NCBI GenBank assembly: GCA_947588355.1
Contig: CANPYI010000004.1
Span: 1,244 to 65,243, forward strand
Length of the DNA stretch: 64,000 nucleotides
From: an uncultured Clostridia bacterium
GTDB taxonomy: Bacteria; Bacillota; Clostridia; Christensenellales; UBA1242
Direction of reading: 5' to 3'
Shown: piece after piece, positions 82-56,249 of the stretch
Layout of the letters: each line of letters begins with the position of its first letter
Numbering within the stretch: position 1 is the stretch's first letter
The notes under the pieces: generated by a model
Told to the model about the DNA's origin: nothing
Database searches by the model: none
What the model saw: the letters and a program-made list of their open reading frames with translations, nothing else
Position numbers and translations under genes: made by a program

Positions 82-539
82 CTGTTCACCCCAAACTGGC
101 AAAGTATTTTTTCCGCAGTGCTTTGCATCAACTTTTCATCTTGTTTGTCAATATGGTCATAACCCAAAAGATGCAAGAGTCCATGCAGTGCCAAAAAACA
201 AATCTCACGGTTTGTGCTGTGGCCATATTCCTTTGCCTGAGATTTTGCCTTTTTGTGGCAAATTACAATGTCGCCTAAAAACAAACTGCCATCAACTATT
301 TCATCGGAAAATTCTGTCAAATTTTGTGAGACAGATTTTTGCAAATTAGGAAAAGAAAGCACGTCTGTCACACTGTCTTTTCCGCGAAACTGTGCATTTA
401 AGCAAGCAATCTCGTTTTCCGAGACAAAATTGACAGAAACGTTAACGTTTGAAAAATCTTCGTTCAAAATTTTTCCGGCAAGCTCAAAAAGTTTTGTAAT
501 TTTCTTTTTATATGGAAATATCTTTCCTTCTACAATCAT
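78..539 (-). CDS. ybeY: rRNA maturation endoribonuclease YbeY
   Basis: 153 aa with the metal-binding signature HGLLHLLGYDH; AGGA RBS upstream. Confidence 0.9.
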   Translation of the reverse strand: MIVEGKIFPYKKKITKLFELAGKILNEDFSNVNVSVNFVSENEIACLNAQFRGKDSVTDVLSFPNLQKSVSQNLTEFSDEIVDGSLFLGDIVICHKKAKSQAKEYGHSTNREICFLALHGLLHLLGYDHIDKQDEKLMQSTAEKILCQFGVNR

Positions 540-550
540 TGGTTTTCCTT

Positions 551-1675
551 TTAATATCCTCCAACGTCCTCCTCAGTCACAATGCAAAAATTGACAACGG
601 TCACACCCGAAAGATGACGTAAAGTATAAAATTCTTCTTTTATTTTATCACAATCTTCGCAATTTTCCAACGCTTTTGCTTTGGCTTTTGCAATATATTC
701 ATCTTGCACATCTTCAAATTTACTTTCAATCGTCTTTTGTTGCAATTCGTAATAAATCGTTTTTCGCATTTTAAACGGCAAAAAAAAGTTTTTTGAGAGG
801 TCAATGTCCTCAAATTCCACTTCATACATTTTGAAGTTCATATCTTCTTTGAAAGTGTAGATAGAAAGTCCAAACAACCTTATGTCATCTTGCACGGCGG
901 TTTTTCCTGTGCGATTCACCTCAATAAAAGTTTCATAGTGGTCCACACTTCCCTCGTTGTAAACTTCTGCCAAAATTTGTGCCTTTGCCTCCACTTTTTT
1001 AAGTTGTCCAGAAGTGTCAATGGTGTAAGGCTCAACAAGAACATCTCCTTTTTGCACAATGTCGCCGACTTTAACGCGTAACGTTCCAGAAATAAGTGAA
1101 ATCTGTGTGATTTTTCCGTCTTTTTGTGCAACAAGCGGAGCAAATTGACCATACATTTCTTGCGGCAAAAGTTTTTCTTTGATATTTATCACAAGCGTTT
1201 GTCCCTTTATTATGCAGGAAGCAAAACTTAAGCCCGAAAAGTTGTCCAAAAGACATGTCTCAACTTGTTTTGTGTCAATCTCGCTTTTTTTTGCGGAAAA
1301 ACGCTCTTTAACAAAATCGACAATTTCAAGTTGCGACAACTTGTCCTGTCCAATCACGTCATATTGCAAAATATACTGATTTTGCAGGGCAAATAAAACA
1401 ACAAAAACAACAATGGCAGCGACAAGTCCGTAGGAGGTGAAAATTTTGCTCAATTTGTAAGCAATTCCCTCATGCACAACACTTTCTATTTTCACTCCGC
1501 TGTTTTTGAGTGTTTTTTCTATTTTGGCATGTTCAAAATAAGAGCACTTAAAACTTGTGCTATTTTTTGTATGCCTGTCAATATCAGTAAGAGTGAATTT
1601 TTTGCAAAGTTCGTTTAAAAGTTTTTCTTGATTAAGGCCACAAATATGAAAGGTTGTCAGATTTTTCAGTTTCAT
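551..1675 (-). CDS. yqfD: sporulation protein YqfD
   Basis: 374 aa with a central TM segment (GLVAAIVVFVVLFAL). 4-nt ATGA overlap with yqfC. yqfC-yqfD-ybeY order as in Bacillus/Clostridium. Confidence 0.8.
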   Translation of the reverse strand: MKLKNLTTFHICGLNQEKLLNELCKKFTLTDIDRHTKNSTSFKCSYFEHAKIEKTLKNSGVKIESVVHEGIAYKLSKIFTSYGLVAAIVVFVVLFALQNQYILQYDVIGQDKLSQLEIVDFVKERFSAKKSEIDTKQVETCLLDNFSGLSFASCIIKGQTLVINIKEKLLPQEMYGQFAPLVAQKDGKITQISLISGTLRVKVGDIVQKGDVLVEPYTIDTSGQLKKVEAKAQILAEVYNEGSVDHYETFIEVNRTGKTAVQDDIRLFGLSIYTFKEDMNFKMYEVEFEDIDLSKNFFLPFKMRKTIYYELQQKTIESKFEDVQDEYIAKAKAKALENCEDCDKIKEEFYTLRHLSGVTVVNFCIVTEEDVGGY

Positions 1676-11300: not shown

Positions 11301-11447
11301 ATTTCACCTCTTGTATAAAAATATATCACAATTTTCAATAAAAAACAAAATAAAAACTAATACTTAGCAGTTATTTTTATTTTCAACTAAGTCACAGAAT
11401 AATATTTTGTGAGAATAGCGAACTCTTGCGAAATGAAATTGAGCAAC

Positions 11448-11477
11448 AAAAAAAGACTGAAATATCAGTCTTTTTTT
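11448..11477. terminator. intrinsic terminator, repeat unit A
   Basis: A7-agactga-aata-tcagtct-T7. Confidence 0.7.
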
Positions 11478-11592
11478 GTATTATTATTCGATGACAAGAA
11501 GTGCGAGTTTGCTTGCAAGAACAAGCACGACGAAGTCACGGGGAGATAATGCGTGAGCGAACTGCGAACAATTGCGAATGAAAATGAGCAAT

Positions 11593-11619
11593 AAAAAAAG
11601 ACCTTGCGGTCTTTTTTTT
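11593..11619. terminator. intrinsic terminator, repeat unit B
   Basis: A7-gacc-ttgc-ggtc-T8. Confidence 0.7.
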
Positions 11620-11731
11620 GTATTATTGTTCGATGACAAGAAGTGCGATTTTATACATTTATGCACAAGAACGAGCACGACGAAGTCATATATAACAAAA
11701 CTTTCGCGAAGTGAAAATCGCCTTTGGCAAT

Positions 11732-11761
11732 AAAAAAAGATTGCAAACGCAATCTTTTTTT
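11732..11761. terminator. intrinsic terminator directly after tuf, repeat unit C
   Basis: A7-gattgc-aaac-gcaatc-T7, 8 nt from the tuf stop. Confidence 0.8.
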
Positions 11762-11768
11762 AGTTTTG

Positions 11769-12971
11769 TTATTCTATTATTTGAGAAACAACACCAGAGC
11801 CAACTGTTCTGCCACCTTCACGGATAGCGAAACGAAGTCCTTGTTCGATAGCAATCTCTTTTGAAAGTTCGATTGTCATCTTAACATTGTCGCCTGGCAT
11901 AACCATTTCAACGCCTTGTGGAAGTTCGATTGTTCCAGTAACGTCAGTTGTACGGAAATAGAATTGTGGACGATATCCATTGAAGAATGGTGTGTGACGT
12001 CCACCTTCTTCCTTCTTCAAAACGTAAACTTCGGCAGCAAATTTTGTATGTGGGTGAATTGAACCTGGTTTGCAAAGAACTTGTCCTCTTTCGATTTCAT
12101 TTCTTTGAATACCACGAAGAAGAATGCCGACATTGTATCCTGCGATACCTTCATCAACAGTCTTTCTGAACATTTCAACACCAGTAACAACTGTTTGTTT
12201 CTTTGCGCCCATACCAACGATTTCAACAACGTCGTTGATCTTAACTTTTCCTCTTTCGATTCTTCCTGTTGCAACAGTTCCACGTCCTGTAATTGTGAAG
12301 ACGTCTTCAACTGGCATCAAGAAAGGTTTGTCAGTGTCACGAACTGGGTCTGGGATATAAGAATCAAGAGCATCAAGAAGTTGTTCGATGCATGTGCAAG
12401 CAGGGTCATTGATATTTCCAGCTTGAGCGGCTTCCAAAGCCTTCAAAGCAGAGCCTTTGATGATTGGAGTTTTGTCTCCTGGGAATCCATATTCTGTCAA
12501 AAGGTCACGGATTTCCATTTCAACAAGGTCAAGAAGTTCTGGATCATCAACTTGATCAGTTTTGTTCATGAAAACAACGATATAAGGAACGCCAACCTGT
12601 CTTGCAAGCAAGATGTGTTCACGTGTCTGAGGCATTGGACCATCAGTTGCAGCAACAACAAGGATTGCTCCGTCCATCTGAGCGGCACCAGTGATCATGT
12701 TTTTAACATAGTCAGCGTGTCCCGGGCAGTCAACGTGTGCATAGTGACGTTTGTCTGTTTGATACTCAACGTGTGCAGTGTTGATTGTGATTCCGCGCGC
12801 TTTTTCCTCTGGCGCTTTATCGATTTCGTCATATCTCATTTTTTGAGCATAACCCTTTGCAGCCTGATACATTGTGATGGCAGCAGTAAGGGTTGTTTTA
12901 CCATGGTCAACGTGTCCGATTGTTCCTACATTGACATGGAGTTTGGTGTTATCATATTTTCCAACAGCCAT
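11769..12971 (-). CDS. tuf: elongation factor Tu
   Basis: 400 aa with [17 protein letters not shown] and NKTD motifs. Confidence 0.98.
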
Positions 12972-13060: not shown

Positions 13061-15133
13061 TTATTGTTTTTTTCTTGCTCCGACAATTCCTTCGGCGATA
13101 TTTTTTGGAACTTCGTTATATTTCAAAAATTCCATAGTGAAAGTTCCGCGTCCTTGTGTTTGAGAACGAAGGTCTGTGGCATAGCCAAACATTTCTCCAA
13201 GTGGCACTTCGGCATTGACAACTTGCACGCCTGGACGTGTTTCGTTTCCTGTCAAAATTCCACGACGAGAAGTGAGGTTGCCCATAACCGTTCCAAGATA
13301 GTCATCTGGAACTTCAACCTGCACTTTCATAATAGGTTCCAAAAGCACAGGATTTGCCTTTGCAGCGCCGTCTTTGAACGCCATAGAGCCGGCAATCTTA
13401 AATGCCATTTCAGATGAGTCGACTTCGTGATAAGAGCCGTCAATAACTGTAACTTTAAAGTCCACAGTTTCGTATCCTGCAACGACACCTGTCTTGCTTG
13501 CTTCTTGAATTCCGTTGTTGATTGGTTGAATATATTCTTTTGGAATAGAGCCACCAACGGTCTTGTCTTCAAATTGATATCCAGAGCCTGGTGCAAGAGG
13601 TTCGATGTCGATGATACAATGACCATACTGACCTTTACCACCGCTTTGACGGATAAATTTGCCTTCTGCACGAGTTGCCTTTCTGATAGTTTCTTTGTAA
13701 GCAACTTGAGGTTTACCTACATTTGCTTCCACCTTAAATTCACGCAAAAGTCTGTCAACGATGATTTCAAGGTGAAGTTCGCCCATACCGGCAATAATTG
13801 TTTGTCCAGTTTCTTGATCAGTGTAAGTTTTGAAAGTTGGATCTTCTTCTGCAAGTTTGATAAGTGCAAGCACCATCTTTTCTTGCATAAGTTTTGTTTT
13901 AGGCTCGATAGCAACGCGAATAACTGGGTCTGGGAATTCCATGCTTTCCAAAACGATAGGATGCTTTTCGTCACAGAGGGTTTCGCCGGTGATTGTGTCT
14001 TTAAGACCTACGATAGCGGCGATGTCGCCTGCTCCAACCTCTTTGATTTCTTCACGTTGATTGGCGTGCATACGAATAAGTCGTCCAACACGTTCTTTTT
14101 CGCCCTTATTTGAGTTGTAAACATAAGAGCCGGCAGTCAGTTTTCCGGAATAAACACGGAAGAACGCCAATCTTCCAACAAATGGGTCAGTCATAATCTT
14201 AAATGCAAGTCCGGCAAATGGAGCGTCCTCACTTGGAGCACGAGTTTCAGTTTGCTCTGTTTCTGGGTTTACACCTTCAATGTGGTCAATATCCAATGGA
14301 CTTGGCAAGTATTCAACCATGCAGTCCAAAAGCATCTGAACACCTTTGTTTTTGTAAGAAGAACCGCAAATTACAGGCACGATTTCACGAGAAATTGTTG
14401 CCTTGCGAAGTGCTTTTTTAAGTTCGTCAACACTTATTTCTTCGCCCTCAAAATATCTTTCAAGCAAAGCATCGTCTGTTTCAACGATTTTTTCGACCAT
14501 TTCATTGTGAAGTTGTTCTGCCTTAGCCTTATACTCCTGCGGAATTTCTTCAACATCAATTTTTGTGCCGAGGTCATCTTCATAAACCTCCGCTTTCATT
14601 GTCATAAGGTCAATAATTCCTGCAAAAGAATCTGCCTCACCAATTGGCATTTGAATTGCCAGTGGGTTTGTCTTCAATCTTTCGCGAATTGATTCAACAC
14701 AGCCATAAAAGTCGGCAGCATCACGGTCCATTTTGTTGACATAGATGATTGTTGGAACTTTGTACTTTGTGGATTGACGCCAAACAGTTTCTGTTTGAGG
14801 TTGCACCTTGTCACGAGCAGAAAGCACCAAAACCGCACCATCAAGCACTTTCAGTGAACGTTCAACTTCAACAGTAAAGTCAACGTGTCCCGGAGTGTCG
14901 ATAATGTTGATTTTGTGGCCTTTCCAATGACAGGTTGTGCAAGCAGAAGTGATTGTGATACCACGTTCCTGTTCCTGTGCCATCCAGTCCATAGTTGCCT
15001 CACCATCATGCACTTCACCGATTTTGTGGTTTTTGCCGGTGTAGAACAAGATACGTTCTGTTGTAGTGGTTTTTCCGGCATCAATATGAGCCATGATTCC
15101 GACATTTCTGGTAAGTTCAAGATTTGTAGCCAT
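13061..15133 (-). CDS. fusA: elongation factor G
   Basis: 690 aa with AHIDAGKTT and DTPGHVDF motifs. Confidence 0.98.
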
Positions 15134-15225
15134 AATATCTTTTTCCTTTTAATAAATTTGTCTATTTTTTAAGGAAATAAACATAAAAAACCTTGGTTAT
15201 TTCCAATTAAAATACTCAAGTAAAG

Positions 15226-15251
15226 TTTTGCAAGGCGAAAAGGAGTTTGTG
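15226..15251. repeat. 26-nt direct repeat, copy 1 (ttttgcaaggcgaaaaggagtttgtg)
   Basis: 25/26 identical to 15460-15485, 234 nt away. Confidence 0.8.
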
Positions 15252-15459
15252 ACATATTTTTGCTCTCAACGCCCCACTTCGCAAGAGGAGTCGCCGCAAA
15301 ACCGCCAATGAAATGCGGTTTTCGTTTGGCGGCGAAGTGGTGAGGCAAGCGTCAAGGCGATGCTTTTGTAATCCTCTTCAAAATTTTAATAGTGAAAGGA
15401 CTTTGTCCGCTCTTTAAAATTTTGAAGCCCTTTGGCCGCCAGCAAAATGTCCAGCGGAA

Positions 15460-15485
15460 TTTTGCAAGGCGAAAAGGGGTTTGTG
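15460..15485. repeat. 26-nt direct repeat, copy 2 (ttttgcaaggcgaaaaggggtttgtg)
   Basis: 25/26 identical to 15226-15251. Confidence 0.8.
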
Positions 15486-15556
15486 GGGAAAACGAATTTT
15501 AGGCGTTAGGAAAACCCTGTTTTCCGTGTCGCCGTTAAGAAATTCTAGTTGTCCCC
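15485..15556. ncRNA. conserved multi-stem hairpin motif, copy 1 (candidate structured RNA or REP-like element)
   Basis: Identical blocks TTTTAGGCGTTAGG (15497-15510) and CCGTGTCGCCGT (15524-15535) flank an inner stem ggaaaac/gttttcc. Outer pairings gaattt/aaattc and gggga/tcccc. Ends 5 nt from the rpsG stop. A second copy is at 54528-54614. Confidence 0.4.
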
Positions 15557-15562
15557 GCACGC

Positions 15563-16036
15563 TTACCACTTGTAGTGTGCAAACGCTTTGTTTGCTTCGG
15601 CCATTCTGTGCATTTCGTCACGTTTTTTGATAGATGCACCAGTGTTGTTGTATGCATCTATAAGTTCGCCTGCAAGTTTTTCGTCCATGTTGCGTTCGCC
15701 AGTTCTTTTTCTTGCATTGTTCACAATCCATCTGATTGCAAGAGTTTGACGACGTTCTGGGCGGATTTCCATAGGCACTTGATAAGTTGCACCGCCAACA
15801 CGACGACCTTTTGTTTCAAGCATAGGCTTAACATTTTCAATTGCTGTCAAACAAACATCAAGTGGTTCAAGACTTGTCTTTTCTTTTACAATATCAAAAG
15901 AGCCATAGACAATTCTTTGTGCAAGACCTTTTTTACCGCTCATCATAACTTGGTTGATAAGTTTTGTCACAACTTTGTTGTTGTAAATTGGATCTGGCAA
16001 AACATCTTTTTTGACAGCACTATTTCTTCTTGGCAT
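15563..16036 (-). CDS. rpsG: 30S ribosomal protein S7
   Basis: 157 aa, canonical S7 sequence. Confidence 0.97.
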
Positions 16037-16075: not shown

Positions 16076-16456
16076 TTATTTCCCCGATTTTGGTCTTTTT
16101 GCGCCATATTTAGAGCGTCCTTGTTTGCGGTTTGCAACGCCGGCTGTATCCAAAGTTCCTCTGATGATGTGATAACGCACACCAGGAAGGTCCTTCACAC
16201 GTCCGCCACGAACAAGCACAACACTGTGTTCCTGCAAATTGTGTCCAATTCCTGGGATATAGCAAGTTCCTTCTTGGCCATTTGAAAGTTTGACTCTGGC
16301 AATCTTACGAAGAGCAGAGTTTGGCTTTTTTGGAGTGGCAGTTCTCACTGAAAGGCAAACACCACGTTTTTGTGGGCATTCTTCCAAAAGAGGTGCTTTC
16401 TTTTTCTTTTCAAATGTTTTGCGACCATTTCTTACAAGTTGGTTGAATGTAGGCAT
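16076..16456 (-). CDS. rpsL: 30S ribosomal protein S12
   Basis: 126 aa with the [10 protein letters not shown] motif. Confidence 0.97.
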
Positions 16457-17257: not shown

Positions 17258-19225
17258 TTACTCAAGCATTTTCAAAATGTCGCTTTCAGAAATAATTTCC
17301 ACGCCCAAAGTTTTTGCTTTTTCAAGTTTGCTGCCCGCTTCCTCGCCCGCCAAAACAAAGGTTGTGTTTTTGGAAACGCTTGAAGAAGTTTTTCCGCCGT
17401 TTTCCTCAATCAATTTTGTCATTTCGGGTCTGGAATAGTTTGGCAAAGTGCCCGTCAAAACAAAAGTAAGGCCTTCAAGTTTGTCCGATTGTGCATTTTG
17501 TTGTTTTTGAATTTTCACTCCAACCGACAAAAGTCGTTCAATTTCCTTCAAATTGTTTTCGTTTTCAAAATAGTCCACAATATTTTGTGCAATAACTTCG
17601 CCAATGTCCTCAATGCCGTCCACTTGCTCAAAATTTGCACTTTGCAAAGATGACAAATCTTTGAAAGTTTTTGCCAAGTCTTTTGCGGTTTTAGTTCCGA
17701 CTTCGCTTATGCCAAGAGCAAAAATAAAGCGTGAAAAATCGATGTTTTTGGAACGTTCAAGACTGTCCAAAACATTTTGTGCTTTTTTGTCTGCAAACTT
17801 TTCAAGCCCGACAAGTTGCTGTTTTGTCAAGTGATACAAATCTGAATAGTGACGAAGATTTAGGTCGTCATAAAACTGAATAATAGTTTTTTCAGAAAGT
17901 CCTTCAATATCAAACGCCTCTCGCGAACAAAAATGAGTGAGCCTTGCCACAACTTGTTGTTTGCAGCCATAGTAATTTGTGCAAAACACAAGAGGACCCT
18001 TTTTGACAAGTTTTTCGCCACAACATGGACAAAAGTTTGGCTCGTCAATCTCTTTTGAATTTTCCAATTTTTCCGCCAGTCCCAAAACCTCTGGAATCAC
18101 CTCGTTTGAGCGGCGAATAAAAACACGACTGTTAAGGTACACATTCTTTTTACGAATATCTTCAATATTGTTTAATGTCGCACGCTGAATTGTTGCCCCT
18201 GCAAGTTCCACAGGCTCAAGAATGGCAGTTGGCGAAACTTTTCCTGTTCTGCCAACCTGCCAAACAACATCTTTCAGCAAGGTGGAAACCTCTTCTGCCT
18301 CAAACTTGTATGCCACCGCCCATTTTGGAAACTTGTTTGTGTAGCCAATTTCTTCGCGCGGAGCAACTTGATTTAGTTTTATCACCACACCGTCAATCAT
18401 AACATCAAGTTTGTTTTTGACTTCATCAATATGGTTTATTATCTTCATTGCCTCATCTTTGGTTTTTACAATTTCAAAAAAATCGCCCGTTTTGAAGCCA
18501 TTTTCCGCCAAAAAATTGTGCATGTCTTGTTGTGAAGCAAATTTTTTGCCCTCGCAAAGCAAAATCGCATAGCAAAAATAATCCAAATTTCTGCGTGCAG
18601 TTTCCTTTGGATCAAGATTTCTTATCGCGCCCGCAACTCCGTTTCTCGGATTTTTAAGTGGCTCACTGGCTGTCTTGTTGTATTTTTTGAACGCCGAGTT
18701 TGTCATCATGCCCTCGCCTTGCAAAATAAGCCTGCCCTTGAAGGGGATTTCCAGCGGAACGCTTTTGATTGTCTTGACCTGCTCTGTCACATCTTCACCA
18801 ATTTCTCCATTTCCGCGAGTGGTGGCAGAAACAAATTTGCCGTTTTGATATTCAGTGACAATGGTCAGCCCGTCAAATTTGTACTCCACAGCAAAAGAGG
18901 CGTCTTTGACCGCTTTTTGCATATCGGCAAAAAAATCAGAAAGTTCTTCGTCCGAACGCACCTTGTTCATGGAATAAAGCCTGACTTCATGGCGTTTTTT
19001 GACAAATTTGTCCAAAACATCTCCACCAACACGCTGAGTTGGAGAGTTTGGCAAAATTACGCCAGTTTCTTTTTCCAAATCCACAAGTTCATAGTACAAC
19101 TTGTCGTATTCTTTGTCTGAAATTGTTGGATTGTCAAGTTCGTAATAGTTTTTGTTGTGAAAAAGCACTTCGTCAACAAGTTTTTTCATTCGCTCTAATT
19201 TTTTGTCAAGGTCGCTCATCTTCAA
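17258..19225 (-). CDS. ligA: NAD-dependent DNA ligase
   Basis: 655 aa with adenylation motif EYKFDGL, a Zn finger CPCCGEKLV...C..C, HhH and BRCT regions. Confidence 0.97.
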   Translation of the reverse strand: MKMSDLDKKLERMKKLVDEVLFHNKNYYELDNPTISDKEYDKLYYELVDLEKETGVILPNSPTQRVGGDVLDKFVKKRHEVRLYSMNKVRSDEELSDFFADMQKAVKDASFAVEYKFDGLTIVTEYQNGKFVSATTRGNGEIGEDVTEQVKTIKSVPLEIPFKGRLILQGEGMMTNSAFKKYNKTASEPLKNPRNGVAGAIRNLDPKETARRNLDYFCYAILLCEGKKFASQQDMHNFLAENGFKTGDFFEIVKTKDEAMKIINHIDEVKNKLDVMIDGVVIKLNQVAPREEIGYTNKFPKWAVAYKFEAEEVSTLLKDVVWQVGRTGKVSPTAILEPVELAGATIQRATLNNIEDIRKKNVYLNSRVFIRRSNEVIPEVLGLAEKLENSKEIDEPNFCPCCGEKLVKKGPLVFCTNYYGCKQQVVARLTHFCSREAFDIEGLSEKTIIQFYDDLNLRHYSDLYHLTKQQLVGLEKFADKKAQNVLDSLERSKNIDFSRFIFALGISEVGTKTAKDLAKTFKDLSSLQSANFEQVDGIEDIGEVIAQNIVDYFENENNLKEIERLLSVGVKIQKQQNAQSDKLEGLTFVLTGTLPNYSRPEMTKLIEENGGKTSSSVSKNTTFVLAGEEAGSKLEKAKTLGVEIISESDILKMLE

Positions 19226-37624: not shown

Positions 37625-38584
37625 TCATTGTTTGCCTCCAAGATTCAATTTGTCGATTGTGGAGTTGACATTATCAAATTCTTTATCAACGCGTTTTGCT
37701 TCAAGTTTTTCTTGAAATAATTTTGCTTGCTCCACAATTTCATTATTGAGTGCCTTTGCTGTCTCAACACTTGCACCTTGTTTTGCTCTTTCTGAGGCAA
37801 CAATTTCTTTCAATCCTTTTCGCAAACCTTCTTCATCTATCTTTCCAGCAAACAAATCGTCAAACAAACTTTCAACTGAACTCTTTTTCTGATTTTGTTC
37901 TTTGCTTTTTTCTTTTTTCAAAATTGGCTTTTCTTTTTCATATCCGTCTTTTTCAGAAAGTTTCACTTTCACAAGCAGTTTCTTTTCTTCTTCAGTGGCA
38001 AATTCAAATGCTTCATCTTGGCATTGTTGTCTTAATTTTTTTGCCTCTTCACTGCCATAGTCATTTGTATCTCCATCTTTGTCAAATGGTTTTGCTCTTG
38101 CAATAAGTTCAAGACTTACAAGTCTCATTGACTTTTCTTTGCCATTTTCACATTCATCTTTGTTCAGCCAGATGTAGTCTTTCTTTCCGAATGTCACAAC
38201 TGGTGTTTTGCTCGTTGTTTTGACTGCTTTTCTTTTTTCTTTGTCCCAAATTTCAGCAGTTCTGGAAACTTCCTTGCAACCTTTGACAAGGTTGCATTCT
38301 GGATTGTAGATTGTTTGCAAAGCGACGCGCAACCCGGCGCCAATGCCGTCACCGATGTCCCAGAACAGGTCGCCGACATCGTTCACAAACATTACTATGA
38401 TGGACGAGCCAGGCAACGCAGTGCGGGTGAAGTAGTATCCTGCTTTGTAATCACTGTTTTCACATGCCCCGTCTTTCTTTGCTTTTTCTGAAAGTGACGC
38501 ACTTGCAAAAGCAGGGAATTTTTTGATGATTTCTTGATAATCTGCCTCACTTGGCAAATTTACAAAGTTTTCTATTGTTGCCAT
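37625..38584 (-). CDS. hypothetical protein, paralog A (MATIEN family) with a coiled-coil C-terminal extension
   Basis: Start MATIENFVNLPSEADYQEI behind GGAGAT. Alignable over ~230 aa with 52881..53600. Motifs YYFTRTALP and GLRVALQ. Confidence 0.7.
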   Translation of the reverse strand: MATIENFVNLPSEADYQEIIKKFPAFASASLSEKAKKDGACENSDYKAGYYFTRTALPGSSIIVMFVNDVGDLFWDIGDGIGAGLRVALQTIYNPECNLVKGCKEVSRTAEIWDKEKRKAVKTTSKTPVVTFGKKDYIWLNKDECENGKEKSMRLVSLELIARAKPFDKDGDTNDYGSEEAKKLRQQCQDEAFEFATEEEKKLLVKVKLSEKDGYEKEKPILKKEKSKEQNQKKSSVESLFDDLFAGKIDEEGLRKGLKEIVASERAKQGASVETAKALNNEIVEQAKLFQEKLEAKRVDKEFDNVNSTIDKLNLGGKQ

Positions 38585-38610
38585 ATTTTTTATCTCCTTT
38601 TGATGCAAAT

Positions 38611-38639
38611 ATTTTAACACACTTTTTGAAAGTTGTCAA
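38611..38639 (-). promoter_or_regulatory. promoter of paralog A
   Basis: Minus strand TTGACA-17 nt-TAAAAT. The region is near-identical to the one upstream of paralog B. Confidence 0.6.
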
Positions 38640-38883
38640 TACCCTTTTTTGAACAATTTTCCACGCCCAATTTTGTCATTAAAAAGATGTATTCCTCAAA
38701 TTTATGCTGCCGAATAGGAAAAATTTTGTCATCGTCAAAATAAATCAAAAGGCAGGGGCGAATGTTGTGATATTCTTCCACTATTTCCCATGTTGTTGCA
38801 TGCCCCTGTTCAATCAAATGTTTCACTTTTGCATGATAATTGAAATACACAACTCTATTGTGCGAAAATTTGAAATAAAAATC

Positions 38884-52880: not shown

Positions 52881-53600
52881 TTATTTCGAAATATTTCTGC
52901 CGTTTTCTTTAATAACAGTTTTCAAAATTGGCTCTGCTTTTTCATATCCGTCTTCTTTGGAAAGCCTCACTCTCACAAGCAGTTTCTTTTCTTCTTTGGT
53001 GGCAAACTCCAGTGCTTCGTCTTGGCATTGTTGTCTTATTTCTTTTGCAGCCTCGCAGCCGTAGTCGTTTGAGCATCCGGTTTTGTCAAATGGCTTTGCA
53101 CACGCGATGGATTCAACGCTGACAAGTTTTGCGATGGCAAGATTGCCCTTGCTATGCTGCTCAATGCATTCTTCCAAGTTAAGAACGATATAAGGTTTTT
53201 TCCCAAACATAACAACCGGTGCAACACTTGTTGTTTCCATCACTCTGCAAGTCTCGTAACTATAAACTTTGGCAGTTCTAGAAACTTTCTCACAACTTTT
53301 CATAACACAACTGTCTGGATCGTATTTTACTTGCAAAGCGACGCGCAACCCAGCATGATCGTTGTAACTGTCGTCCCAGTGAAGGAAGCCTTCTTCACGT
53401 ACAGACTCCACTTTGGAGAACGAAGCCGGCAATGCAGTGCGCGTGAAGTAATATCCTGTATTATAATAATATTCTTCACTAGCCCCTTCTTTTTTGGCTT
53501 TTTCTGAAAGCGGAGCGCTTGCAAAAGAAGGAAATTTTGTCATAATTTCTTTCCAATCCGCCATACTCGGCAAATTTACATAGTTTTCTATTGTTGCCAT
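52881..53600 (-). CDS. hypothetical protein, paralog B (MATIEN family)
   Basis: Start MATIENYVNLPSMADWKEI behind GGAGAT; alignable with 37625..38584. Confidence 0.7.
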   Translation of the reverse strand: MATIENYVNLPSMADWKEIMTKFPSFASAPLSEKAKKEGASEEYYYNTGYYFTRTALPASFSKVESVREEGFLHWDDSYNDHAGLRVALQVKYDPDSCVMKSCEKVSRTAKVYSYETCRVMETTSVAPVVMFGKKPYIVLNLEECIEQHSKGNLAIAKLVSVESIACAKPFDKTGCSNDYGCEAAKEIRQQCQDEALEFATKEEKKLLVRVRLSKEDGYEKAEPILKTVIKENGRNISK

Positions 53601-53625
53601 ATATCTATCTCCTTTTGATGCGGAT

Positions 53626-53654
53626 ATCTTATCATACATTTTGAAAGTTGTCAA
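53626..53654 (-). promoter_or_regulatory. promoter of paralog B
   Basis: Minus strand TTGACA-17 nt-TAAGAT; -35 and flank identical to paralog A (tgaaagttgtcaatac). Confidence 0.6.
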
Positions 53655-53701
53655 TACGATTTTTTTGAAAAGGTCAAAATGAGATGGCAAAAAAACAAAA
53701 C

Positions 53702-53926
53702 CTACTCCCCGCACAAAACCTCAAGGATATATTCAAACACGCTCATTTGTTCATTTGTGACAAGTTGCATAATTTCAGACTCATAATCCAAAAACATCTG
53801 ATATTGCTCCTTGCTTAAAGTGGCAAGCAATTTTTTCTCTACATCAAAATAGGCTTCTGGAAAATTTGGCTTTCCGCCCTCCCGATGCGCATACATCTCA
53901 AACATAATCTTCACAATGTCTTTCAT
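53702..53926 (-). CDS. hypothetical small helical protein
   Basis: 74 aa with a strong AAGGAGAG RBS; divergent from the XRE pair. Confidence 0.6.
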   Translation of the reverse strand: MKDIVKIMFEMYAHREGGKPNFPEAYFDVEKKLLATLSKEQYQMFLDYESEIMQLVTNEQMSVFEYILEVLCGE

Positions 53927-53943: not shown

Positions 53944-53973
53944 TATAACTATTGTAATATAACCATAGTTATA
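53944..53973. promoter_or_regulatory. 9-bp perfect inverted repeat TATAACTAT-N12-ATAGTTATA in a divergent promoter region (operator candidate)
   Basis: Read directly; lies between the 74-aa gene and the first XRE gene. Confidence 0.5.
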
Positions 53974-54023
53974 TGTCAAGTATTTTTATTACTATTGCAA
54001 TAAAATTTAAAAGGATATTAAAT

Positions 54024-54227
54024 ATGAACAAATTTGCAGAAAGATTGAAAGAATTGAGAATAGAAAAAGGGTTAACTCAAAAGCAATTGGCTGACGAAGT
54101 TGAAATAAGTCAGGCTATCATTTCTCTGTATGAGAAAAATGTCCGCACACCAACTATAGATATTATAATAATTTTATGCAATTATTTTAAAGTTTCATCT
54201 GATTATCTTATAGGTTTGGAAGACTGA
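54024..54227 (+). CDS. XRE family HTH regulator (tandem copy 1)
   Basis: MNKFAERLKELRIEKGLTQKQLADEVEISQAIISLYEKNVRTP...DYLIGLED. AAGGA RBS. Confidence 0.85.
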   Translation: MNKFAERLKELRIEKGLTQKQLADEVEISQAIISLYEKNVRTPTIDIIIILCNYFKVSSDYLIGLED

Positions 54228-54228
54228 T

Positions 54229-54432
54229 ATGAACAAATTTGCACAAAGATTGAAAGAACTTCGCCTTGAAGAAAATTTAAGCCAAACAGAACTTGCAAAA
54301 AGAACAGGCTTGACACAAACGGCGATAGGAAAATGGGAACAAAACAAACGCACCCCTTCAATTGAAGTGCTTTATGTTTTGTGTCGATACTTCCATGTCT
54401 CCGCCGACTATCTTATAGGTCTGGAAGACTAA
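54229..54432 (+). CDS. XRE family HTH regulator (tandem copy 2)
   Basis: MNKFAQRLKELRLEENLSQTELAKRTGLTQTAIGKWEQNKRTP...DYLIGLED; starts 1 nt after copy 1. Confidence 0.85.
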   Translation: MNKFAQRLKELRLEENLSQTELAKRTGLTQTAIGKWEQNKRTPSIEVLYVLCRYFHVSADYLIGLED

Positions 54433-54456: not shown

Positions 54457-54527
54457 TTTTTTTTATGGAATAAATTTTCAATTTTGCACTAAGCACAAAT
54501 TGAAAATCACCAATGCTGGAGAAGGCT

Positions 54528-54614
54528 TGGGAGAAGAACCAAAGTTTTAGGCGTTAGGCTTTTTTAAGCCGTGTCGCCGTCAAAAACTTTGGTGCGTCAC
54601 CAGTTTGTCCCCGT
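54528..54614. ncRNA. conserved multi-stem hairpin motif, copy 2
   Basis: The same blocks TTTTAGGCGTTAGG (54545-54558) and CCGTGTCGCCGT (54569-54580). The inner stem is now ggctt/aagcc and the outer stem aaagtttt/aaaacttt. Ends 4-5 nt from the yloV stop. Confidence 0.4.
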
Positions 54615-54617
54615 GTT

Positions 54618-56249
54618 TTATTCCAAACTCACCAAATAATAATACACAGGTTGTCCGCCATTGGCAACAGTCACTTCACAATCAGGGTATTTTTTTGCAA
54701 TGGTTTCCTGCAATGCATTTGCTTCGTCCTCGCGAATATCTTCGCCATAAAACAAAGTGATGTTCATTACACTGTCGTCAAACATGGCGTCAATAAGTTT
54801 TTCAGTTGTTTCGCTGACAAGATTTCCTTTTGCCAAAATTGCTTTGTCATCAAGGCCGATAATCTCACCTTTTGCAAGGTCAAATCCGTCAACATGAGTG
54901 TCACGAACAGCATAAGTCACACTGCCCGAGCGCACACTTTTGATTGCCTCCAACATGGCGGCTTGATTTTCCTCCACGCTGGCATCTGGATTGAATGTTA
55001 TCGCTGCGGAAATGCCCTCCGGAACACTGCGAGTTGGAATGATAATGAGGTTTTTGTTGGTCACTTCATTGGCTTGCTCGGCAGCAAGTTGAATGTTTTT
55101 GTTGTTTGGAAAAACAAACACATTGCGTGCTGGCACTTTGTCCGCTGCAGTGGCAATATCCTCCGCGCTTGGATTCATGGTTTGTCCACCCACAATAATT
55201 TCATCAACAGTAAGTTCTTTGAAGATTTGTGAAAGCCCATCGCCCGGTGCAACCGCAATCATGCCAAGTTCTTTGGTTTCCTCAACCGCTTGTGCTTTCT
55301 TTTTAAGTTCACGATTTTGCTCGCGCATGTTTTCTATCTTCAAGTTGTAAAGTTCGCCAAGTTCAAGTGCATATCCAAGTGCCTTGTTTGGCTCGTTTGT
55401 ATGAACGTGCACCTTTACAAGTGACAAGTCACCAATACAAATCACACTGTCTCCAATTTCCATAAGTTTTTCGCGCAGTTTGGTGATGTCAACCTCTGTT
55501 GTCTTTTTGTACATGTTTATAATCATGTACTCGGTGCAATAGCCGTACTCGATATCGCCCAAATTGTTGATGTCGGCAATCACATCGTCAACGGTTTGAG
55601 GCTTTGTCTCGTCTTCAAACGAATATTCAAGTTCTTCGCCCATAAGGAAACGATAAAATCCGGTGAAAATCACCAAAATACCGCGTCCGCCACTGTCCAC
55701 AACACCCGCTTTTTTCAAGACAGGCAACATTTCTGGAGTTTGCTTTAAGATTTCCTCGCCAGTGTCCAAAACTTTTTTCAAAAACAATTCAAAATCATCA
55801 TGACGCTTTGCAAGGCTGACAGCATTTTCCGCCATAACGCGAATAACTGTCAGGATTGTGCCTTCTTTTGGCTTTGTCACGGCTTTGTAGGCGATTGTTG
55901 CCCCTTCTTGCATGGCCTTGGCAAAGTCCTTTGTGGAAATCTCTTTGCAATTTTTCGTCACCGAGCAAAAGCCTTTAAAAATCTGCGATGTAATAACGCC
56001 TGAATTGCCTCTTGCGCCGCGCAAAGCACCTTTTGCAAACGCCTCCGAAAGTGACGCAAGGTCGGTGTTCATGCATTTGTTTATCTCGCCAACAGCCGAT
56101 TTCATAGTCAAAAACATATTTGTTCCCGTGTCACCATCTGGAACAGGAAAAACATTAAGGCTGTCGATATATTCTTTGTTTTGTTCAAGCAGACTTACGC
56201 CCGCAAGGACCATCTTTTTAAAGGTCGCTCCACTAATCGTTTTTTGCAT
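54618..56249 (-). CDS. yloV: DAK2 domain fusion protein YloV
   Basis: 543 aa with an N-terminal Dak2 motif (NVFPVPDGDTGTNM) and a C-terminal DegV-like half; follows asp23/yloU. Confidence 0.9.
   Translation of the reverse strand: MQKTISGATFKKMVLAGVSLLEQNKEYIDSLNVFPVPDGDTGTNMFLTMKSAVGEINKCMNTDLASLSEAFAKGALRGARGNSGVITSQIFKGFCSVTKNCKEISTKDFAKAMQEGATIAYKAVTKPKEGTILTVIRVMAENAVSLAKRHDDFELFLKKVLDTGEEILKQTPEMLPVLKKAGVVDSGGRGILVIFTGFYRFLMGEELEYSFEDETKPQTVDDVIADINNLGDIEYGYCTEYMIINMYKKTTEVDITKLREKLMEIGDSVICIGDLSLVKVHVHTNEPNKALGYALELGELYNLKIENMREQNRELKKKAQAVEETKELGMIAVAPGDGLSQIFKELTVDEIIVGGQTMNPSAEDIATAADKVPARNVFVFPNNKNIQLAAEQANEVTNKNLIIIPTRSVPEGISAAITFNPDASVEENQAAMLEAIKSVRSGSVTYAVRDTHVDGFDLAKGEIIGLDDKAILAKGNLVSETTEKLIDAMFDDSVMNITLFYGEDIREDEANALQETIAKKYPDCEVTVANGGQPVYYYLVSLE

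Follow-up and report, generated by a model that had tools for sequence, protein, structure and literature searches.

The rpsG–fusA junction examined here raises the question of why a highly structured sequence of 429 nt should separate two genes of a core operon in an uncultured Clostridia bacterium. In the 64,000-nt stretch of DNA that was analysed (the window; WIN in sequence comparisons), the str operon occupies the minus strand and runs from rpsL through rpsG, the 429-nt spacer (15134–15562) and fusA to tuf, with other gaps of 39 nt (rpsL–rpsG) and 89 nt (fusA–tuf). The preliminary description of this DNA had considered a regulator of EF-G/EF-Tu expression, a processed small RNA and a nested insertion of miniature repeats. 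We favour, with a probability of about 0.7, a mosaic of mobile structured intergenic repeats comparable to REP, BIME, BOX and ERIC elements, carried as passengers in the str-operon transcript.

Modular organisation and conserved pairing of the spacer

The spacer is a four-part mosaic. From rpsG towards fusA, the parts are element A, element B, a 26-nt partial duplicate of the start of hairpin H2 and an AT-rich fusA leader, where element A denotes the hairpins H1, H2 and H3 together and unit X denotes H2 and H3. The features of the operon and its spacer are as follows.

16076–16456, minus strand: rpsL
15563–16036, minus strand: rpsG, encoding ribosomal protein S7 (157-aa ORF; Pfam Ribosomal_S7 on the identical protein)
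15483–15558, minus strand: H1, multi-tier hairpin of the H family (nhmmer E = 1e-17; fold; covarying inner stems)
15428–15478, minus strand: H2, hairpin with the conserved tip UUCC-GCU-GGACA (folds in four species; covariance model and pair counts)
15376–15427, minus strand: H3, 14-bp perfect AT-rich stem around GGAC-AAA-GUCC (stem search; pair changes)
15243–15367, minus strand: element B, with a three-tier hairpin at ~15275–15340 (nhmmer matches in relatives; fold)
15226–15251, minus strand: second copy of the 26-nt direct repeat, a renewed H2 start fused to the 3′ end of B
15134–15225, minus strand: module C, AT-rich fusA leader with Shine-Dalgarno sequence (core 15141–15193 conserved in relatives)
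13061–15133, minus strand: fusA, encoding EF-G (690-aa ORF)
11769–12971, minus strand: tuf

H1 starts 4–6 nt past the rpsG stop codon and has the layout GGGGACAAC..GAATT..TTA-AC-GGCG-ACAC-[tip hairpin]-TAA-CGCC-TAA-AATTC..GTTTTCCCC. Element B is recognisable by its CCAAACG bulge, which is conserved, and by a tail reading ACUC(C)UCUUGCGAAGU. The 26-nt direct repeat first occurs as the 5′ half of H2 (copy 1, 15460–15485). Because an H2 start can follow either H1 or B, we read this repeat as a junction between modules rather than a target-site duplication; in strain L087 (L numbers designate loci of relatives) the same sequence connects B straight to a complete H2–H3. The core of module C is 92% identical over 53 nt to L005 (3926–3978) and also matches L010 and L012. 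The ~55 nt upstream of the fusA ribosome-binding site are 86–92% identical to L005 and L012 and ~78% identical to L010, and synonymous-site identity for the sharers L005 and L012 is ~57–61%. Module C showed no significant fold and no sigma-70 match, and sequestration of its Shine-Dalgarno sequence was rejected, the fold being non-significant and variable between species. A pseudoknot proposed by RNAalifold, in which the H2 loop would pair with the tail following H3, was dropped because the H2 tip closes locally when single sequences are folded (4/4 species).

All hairpins and repeats given in the preliminary description were recovered, among them the 14-bp perfect stem (15376–15389 / 15414–15427), the tiered hairpin at ~15275–15340 (repeat search and fold) and the pair of 26-nt direct repeats (15226 and 15460; 234 nt apart, 25/26 matching), whose equivalents appeared in 0 of 100 shuffled spacers. 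The spacer as a whole folds far more stably than shuffled sequence (z = −5.2 on the transcribed strand and −5.7 on the opposite strand). The visibly higher GC content that had been claimed holds modestly against the window and rpsG (0.41 versus 0.386 and 0.395) but not against fusA (0.427), and the excess is confined to the repeat modules (element A 0.43, element B 0.52, last 92 nt 0.20); the spacer nevertheless lies well above the module-free spacers of relatives (0.10–0.35).

Comparison of aligned copies shows that the stems of the elements are kept by compensatory changes, as expected of structured elements. The inner stems of H covary across copies (GGCG/CGCC, GCGG/CCGC, GCTG/CAGC, GCCA/TGGC), with double changes in 4/7 pairs, and the covarying rpsG-proximal hairpin noted earlier has a second copy in the window (54532–54613) whose stem sequences differ yet stay complementary. 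Across species, H3 has changed on both sides in 8/14 stem pairs and 4/7 tip pairs, and the stems of B differ among WIN, L087, L012 and L054 with complementarity kept. In an X alignment of eight copies (about five independent sequences), which was fitted to the model and so leans towards it, 89.5% of cells were paired versus 42–59% in slid controls, with 14 versus 2–6 pairs showing double changes. A test for the functional strand gave G-U versus A-C counts of 17 versus 10. The loops UUCC-NNU-GGACA and CGGRCAAAGYCC are conserved in element A, and WIN is 67–72% identical over this element to L014, L019 and L020, compared with 46–50% at four-fold degenerate sites of rpsG and fusA, so that either element A is under constraint or it arose after the species had split.

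The spacer holds no credible ORF, as had been stated, since the sense strand has only an ORF of 59 aa that starts with TTG and one of 51 aa that starts with GTG; neither is kept in homologous modules of other species, where indels are not multiples of three. Neither a sigma-70-type promoter nor an intrinsic terminator was predicted on the sense strand within the spacer, and a promoter candidate after repeat copy 2 (TTGCAA-16-TTTAAT) was rejected because its −10 box has no A at position 2. With no predicted promoter or terminator inside it, the insert is probably co-transcribed with rpsL-rpsG-fusA-tuf. The transcription of the spacer asserted in the preliminary description is plausible, and fusA and tuf would presumably be expressed by read-through from upstream. 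Downstream of tuf, the window contains a ~470-nt non-coding stretch (11301–11768) with direct repeats spaced ~142–150 nt apart (11471–11510 with 11613–11652, 95%; 11516–11538 with 11666–11688, 96%).

Turnover of the rpsG–fusA junction and dispersed copies

An RpsG search restricted to one genome per species returned 80 loci (S7 71–99% identical) from uncultured gut Clostridia labelled Clostridia, Christensenellaceae or Christensenella. The rpsG–fusA gap ranges from 21 to 2387 nt over ~75 related species, with unrelated contents that include small ORFs; outgroup species have gaps of 21–44 nt, the expansion being limited to the clade of the window. In the nearest species by RpsG identity (L001–L004 and L064; 96–99%), the gap consists of 111–224 nt of unrelated AT-rich sequence. 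Sharing with the nearest species is limited to the last ~55 nt of the spacer (module C). Element A occurs in 5 of ~75 species, and the elements are scattered on the protein tree, so neither presence nor position upstream of fusA is conserved as would be expected of an operon-specific fusA leader.

Many relatives carry sense-strand ORFs of 50–300 aa between rpsG and fusA. Among the cargo are a DHH/DHHA1 phosphoesterase in L015 and, in L027, a protein resembling nucleoside 2-deoxyribosyltransferase; the L059 spacer holds three ORFs. A family of ~100–130-aa proteins, several of which start MF[IV]E[KRS]L, lies between rpsG and fusA in five species (L007 3604–4002; L008 4122–4424; L010 3481–3843; L054 3491–3805; L080, two ORFs) with pairwise blastp E values of 1e-5 to 1e-18. 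Pfam gave no match above cut-off for four members (L007, L008, L010, L054), the L010 protein having only a sub-threshold HEXIM match, and the family may represent an unrecognised small protein riding in the str operon. Because both the length and the contents of the gap vary (repeats, ORFs, cargo genes), we regard the junction as an insertion hot spot. Another family of structured repeats, with motifs such as CGTTTCTG...AGTCAYTTAGG...CTAAGCTCCT...GCCGAGCCTTG, occupies the spacers of L006, L017, L018 and L038, where several copies stand in tandem or dispersed.

Turnover extends to closely related strains. Among contigs with identical RpsG, three (L084–L086) share the 429-nt spacer, L084 with a single SNP. 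In L087 (identical RpsG; rpsG DNA 98.9% identical), a B paralogue of ~80% identity follows the rpsG stop codon and is joined directly to an identical X, which is followed by a different ORF.

The profile of H found two copies within the window, one after rpsG and one after fakA, the latter at the following position.

54467–54617, minus strand: second H + H3-like element (nhmmer E = 2e-14), directly after the fakA stop codon and before the fakA terminator
54618–56249: fakA

This second copy has the same layout of H and an H3-like hairpin as the two reversed H copies of L012, next to each of which the H3-like hairpin was identified with the covariance model of X. The fakA site also provides a comparison of a filled with an empty site: in L099 (FakA 97% identical, same downstream terminator and HTH gene), 8 nt replace the 151-nt element of the window, and no target duplication was evident at this one site. 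H, X and B were all absent from ~160 kb around fakA of three further relatives. Elsewhere in the window, a ~750-nt segment with a 277-aa ORF (52881–53714) is present in two diverged copies, 37915–38650 and 52919–53665 (71–87% identical); one copy adjoins tandem XRE-type HTH genes (53973–54432) beside the second H element, and the region of this segment pair may be a small variable island.

In the loci of relatives, H copies were detected in L005, L012, L014, L019, L020, L040, L046 and L081. Both L012 copies are reversed and end ~10 nt ahead of a ribosome-binding site, that of rpsL in one case and that of rpsG in the other. There are two copies in L019 and two in L020 (one reversed), whereas the L040 copy lies directly after rpsG and the L046 copy is reversed in the fusA–tuf spacer. 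In the rpsG–fusA spacer of L081, an L019-like metagenome contig, element A is followed downstream by a tandem array (506–1031, minus strand) of ~2.5 units of ~245 nt, each of which opens with an H-type hairpin. At their start, H copies read (C)TGGGGAGGCACC or GGGGACAAC, and their tips vary from ~10 to ~120 nt. Homologues of B were found with nhmmer in L087, L020, L005, the rpsL–rpsG spacer of L012 and, reversed, an unrelated locus of L054. Counted over distinct species, ~8 copies are in sense and 4 in antisense orientation, and the complete H1–H2–H3 form was seen only directly after rpsG, at an equal distance from the stop codon, in four species. Matches to TCGCCTTGCAAAA at 18714, 24788 and 25542 lie inside coding sequence (ligA, dnaJ and a dnaK-like gene) and are therefore not element copies. 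The sampled density is ~1 per 30 kb, and copy number is poorly known because only ~64 kb of this genome and short loci of relatives were searchable.

The elements are thus families with copies at non-homologous loci and in both orientations, and they are insertions relative to close relatives, in which they may be present or absent, as expected of dispersed mobile repeats. The nested insertion of miniature repeats suggested in the preliminary description is borne out by this recurrence, by presence and absence in close relatives and by rearrangement between strains. Beyond the relatives, blastn of the spacer in distant mode against plasmid and phage collections gave no match, and the H2+H3 and H-core patterns each had 0 matches in viral contigs. 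In metagenomes, the H2+H3 pattern had one real match, again after rpsG, and two chance matches in coding sequence.

Alternative explanations and a proposed mechanism

The spacer does not look like a conserved regulatory RNA, and a dedicated regulatory role is not supported, although the conservation of element A leaves it some probability. A scan against Rfam, which the preliminary description had proposed, matched no family at gathering threshold: with Rfam 15, the whole window gave only a tRNA outside the spacer, the spacer at E ≤ 10 had only two hits, both far below threshold (csRNA, 20.5 versus 57 bits; L31 leader, 13.2 versus 33.3) and six related loci at E ≤ 1 gave nothing over the elements. 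Together with the nearest species lacking the insert and the modules lying beside unrelated genes, this leaves the operon-specific regulator and the processed small RNA that had been put forward without support; both keep some probability because element A is more conserved between species than synonymous sites.

The main rival reading holds that element A by itself has been selected in some lineages as a str-operon RNA acting in cis, to which the other modules were added later. It might bind S7 or another protein, or determine processing or stability so as to uncouple fusA–tuf from rpsL–rpsG. In favour of this reading, element A sits at the same position (4–7 nt past the rpsG stop codon) in WIN, L014, L019/L081 and L020, is more conserved than synonymous sites, combines conserved loops with covarying stems, was seen in its full three-hairpin form only after rpsG and, in metagenomes, was matched by the H2+H3 pattern only in rpsG-linked copies. 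However, it is missing from the spacers of most relatives, including those nearest by RpsG, is degenerate in the sister species L005, has no Rfam match and is separated in WIN from the fusA ribosome-binding site by ~230 nt of B and C, while H + H3 composites also occur at other loci and reversed. On balance we consider a selected cis-acting element A unlikely, though worth keeping in mind. The prospect of a discrete trans-acting small RNA, derived from the rpsG 3′-UTR or independently transcribed, is poorer still: strong local structure and conserved single-stranded loops that could serve as seed regions would suit it, but no promoter or terminator is predicted to flank any module on the sense strand, no U-tract follows any hairpin and the modules occur in both orientations relative to host genes, which makes it very unlikely. 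That the spacer is the decayed remnant of a small gene of the type found here in relatives is highly improbable. Such ORFs are common at this junction, and L046 retains only the first ~19 nt of H1 ahead of one, but the best tblastn match of relatives' spacer ORFs to the 429-nt spacer had E = 0.01 over 34 aa, and covarying hairpins and repeat families account for the sequence.

Under the preferred reading of a mosaic of mobile repeats, the elements are, or recently were, mobile, and a composite would have accumulated at the rpsG–fusA junction. Points that count against this reading are the low sampled density with no copy in ~160 kb of relatives, the lack of an identified transposase, terminal inverted repeat or target duplication, the full H1–H2–H3 form being seen only after rpsG, and the excess of sense over antisense copies; the conservation of element A would suit a selected function at this locus equally. 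We infer that they spread as DNA through a putative enzyme recognising conserved bulges and loops of the hairpins; the conservation and asymmetry of these bulges and loops, as seen in the sequences, suggest recognition of a folded single strand. The whole insert would be transcribed with the operon, and any effect on the operon would be a by-product. Stable intercistronic hairpins could act as exonuclease barriers or endonuclease sites and may therefore shift the ratio of S7 to EF-G/EF-Tu, an effect through RNA stability or processing that we propose by analogy with suggestions made for REP and BOX elements (PMC3733652, PMC3049150) and for ERIC elements.

A broader combined reading, which we hold to be decidedly doubtful, would take H, X and B to be mobile and sequence-constrained structured RNAs or single-stranded DNA hairpins, serviced by a hypothetical enzyme rather than passive. 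In highly expressed genes, these would home to the first few nucleotides past the stop codon or to positions immediately ahead of the ribosome-binding site. Several lineages would have recruited element A to adjust how much S7 is made relative to EF-G/EF-Tu, and the junction would be a landing pad within the operon that captures small ORFs, including the ~100-aa family of five species.

If the spacer is a mosaic of mobile repeats, a highly conserved and highly expressed core operon tolerates several hundred bases of structured selfish DNA between its cistrons, at a junction that in this clade of gut Clostridia turns over rapidly even within one species. For annotation, H, X and B are three unnamed repeat families that could be mistaken for riboswitches or small RNAs in scans of gut metagenomes for structured RNA. 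Natural strains with and without the insert offer a test bed for the influence of intercistronic hairpins on the ratio of ribosomal protein to elongation factor.

Comparison with known systems

In Escherichia coli, the autoregulatory site for S7 in the str operon lies between rpsL and rpsG. The insert resembles autoregulatory ribosomal-protein leaders in being structured RNA within the str operon and adjoining rpsG, but unlike the S7 leader it follows rpsG, is absent from most relatives, recurs by unrelated genes and matches no Rfam leader. Integron attC sites and kink-turns were also considered and dropped, as the core-site features of the former and the tandem G-A features of the latter were not consistently present in the sequences read by eye.

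The REP and BIME elements of Enterobacteria and Pseudomonas include REPINs, which are associated with RAYT (Y1 transposase) genes. REPs are palindromes of 20–40 bp that bear an unpaired tag, GTAG or CGTC, at one end and are present in high copy number, and mRNA stabilisation and supercoiling are among the roles proposed for REP/BIME (PMC3733652). The elements share with REP/BIME imperfect palindromes, intergenic and co-transcribed positions mostly just 3′ of coding regions, occurrence in both orientations, mosaics with other motifs and an apparent lack of target duplication (PMC3733652). They differ from REPs in their multi-tier structure with conserved internal bulges (AC, ACAC/UAA, CCAAACG), their low sampled density and the lack of sequence similarity. 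Assignment to REP/REPIN was rejected on length (70–200 nt) and on the missing GTAG/CGTC end tag; GACG is internal in some copies, but in the sequences read by eye none of these is placed, in the orientation required, at the end of a hairpin.

A second parallel is offered by the BOX elements (with RUP and SPRITE) of Streptococcus pneumoniae, which are likewise modular structured intergenic repeats of one species group with a variable number of modules. BOX elements are co-transcribed with their neighbours and judged parasitic, and their secondary structure can affect expression (PMC3049150). Sequence and host are unrelated to those of the present elements, which have no boxA-boxB-boxC organisation and apparently a much lower copy number. 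ERIC/IRU and Correia/NEMIS-type MITEs offer a further parallel, being imperfect palindromes of ~70–150 nt in transcribed intergenic regions, in either orientation and with size variants from internal insertions, comparable to the H tip of ~10 to ~120 nt. The defining marks of a MITE are target-site duplication and terminal inverted repeats that match an insertion sequence (IS), whereas the single filled and empty site available here has no clear duplication. For the present elements we identified neither a transposase nor terminal inverted repeats nor a target duplication, and we know of no parent IS. Our literature search found no paper on such repeats in Christensenellales. The elements are best described as a new family of a known type, larger than REPs and specific to a clade of uncultured, Christensenellales-like gut Clostridia.
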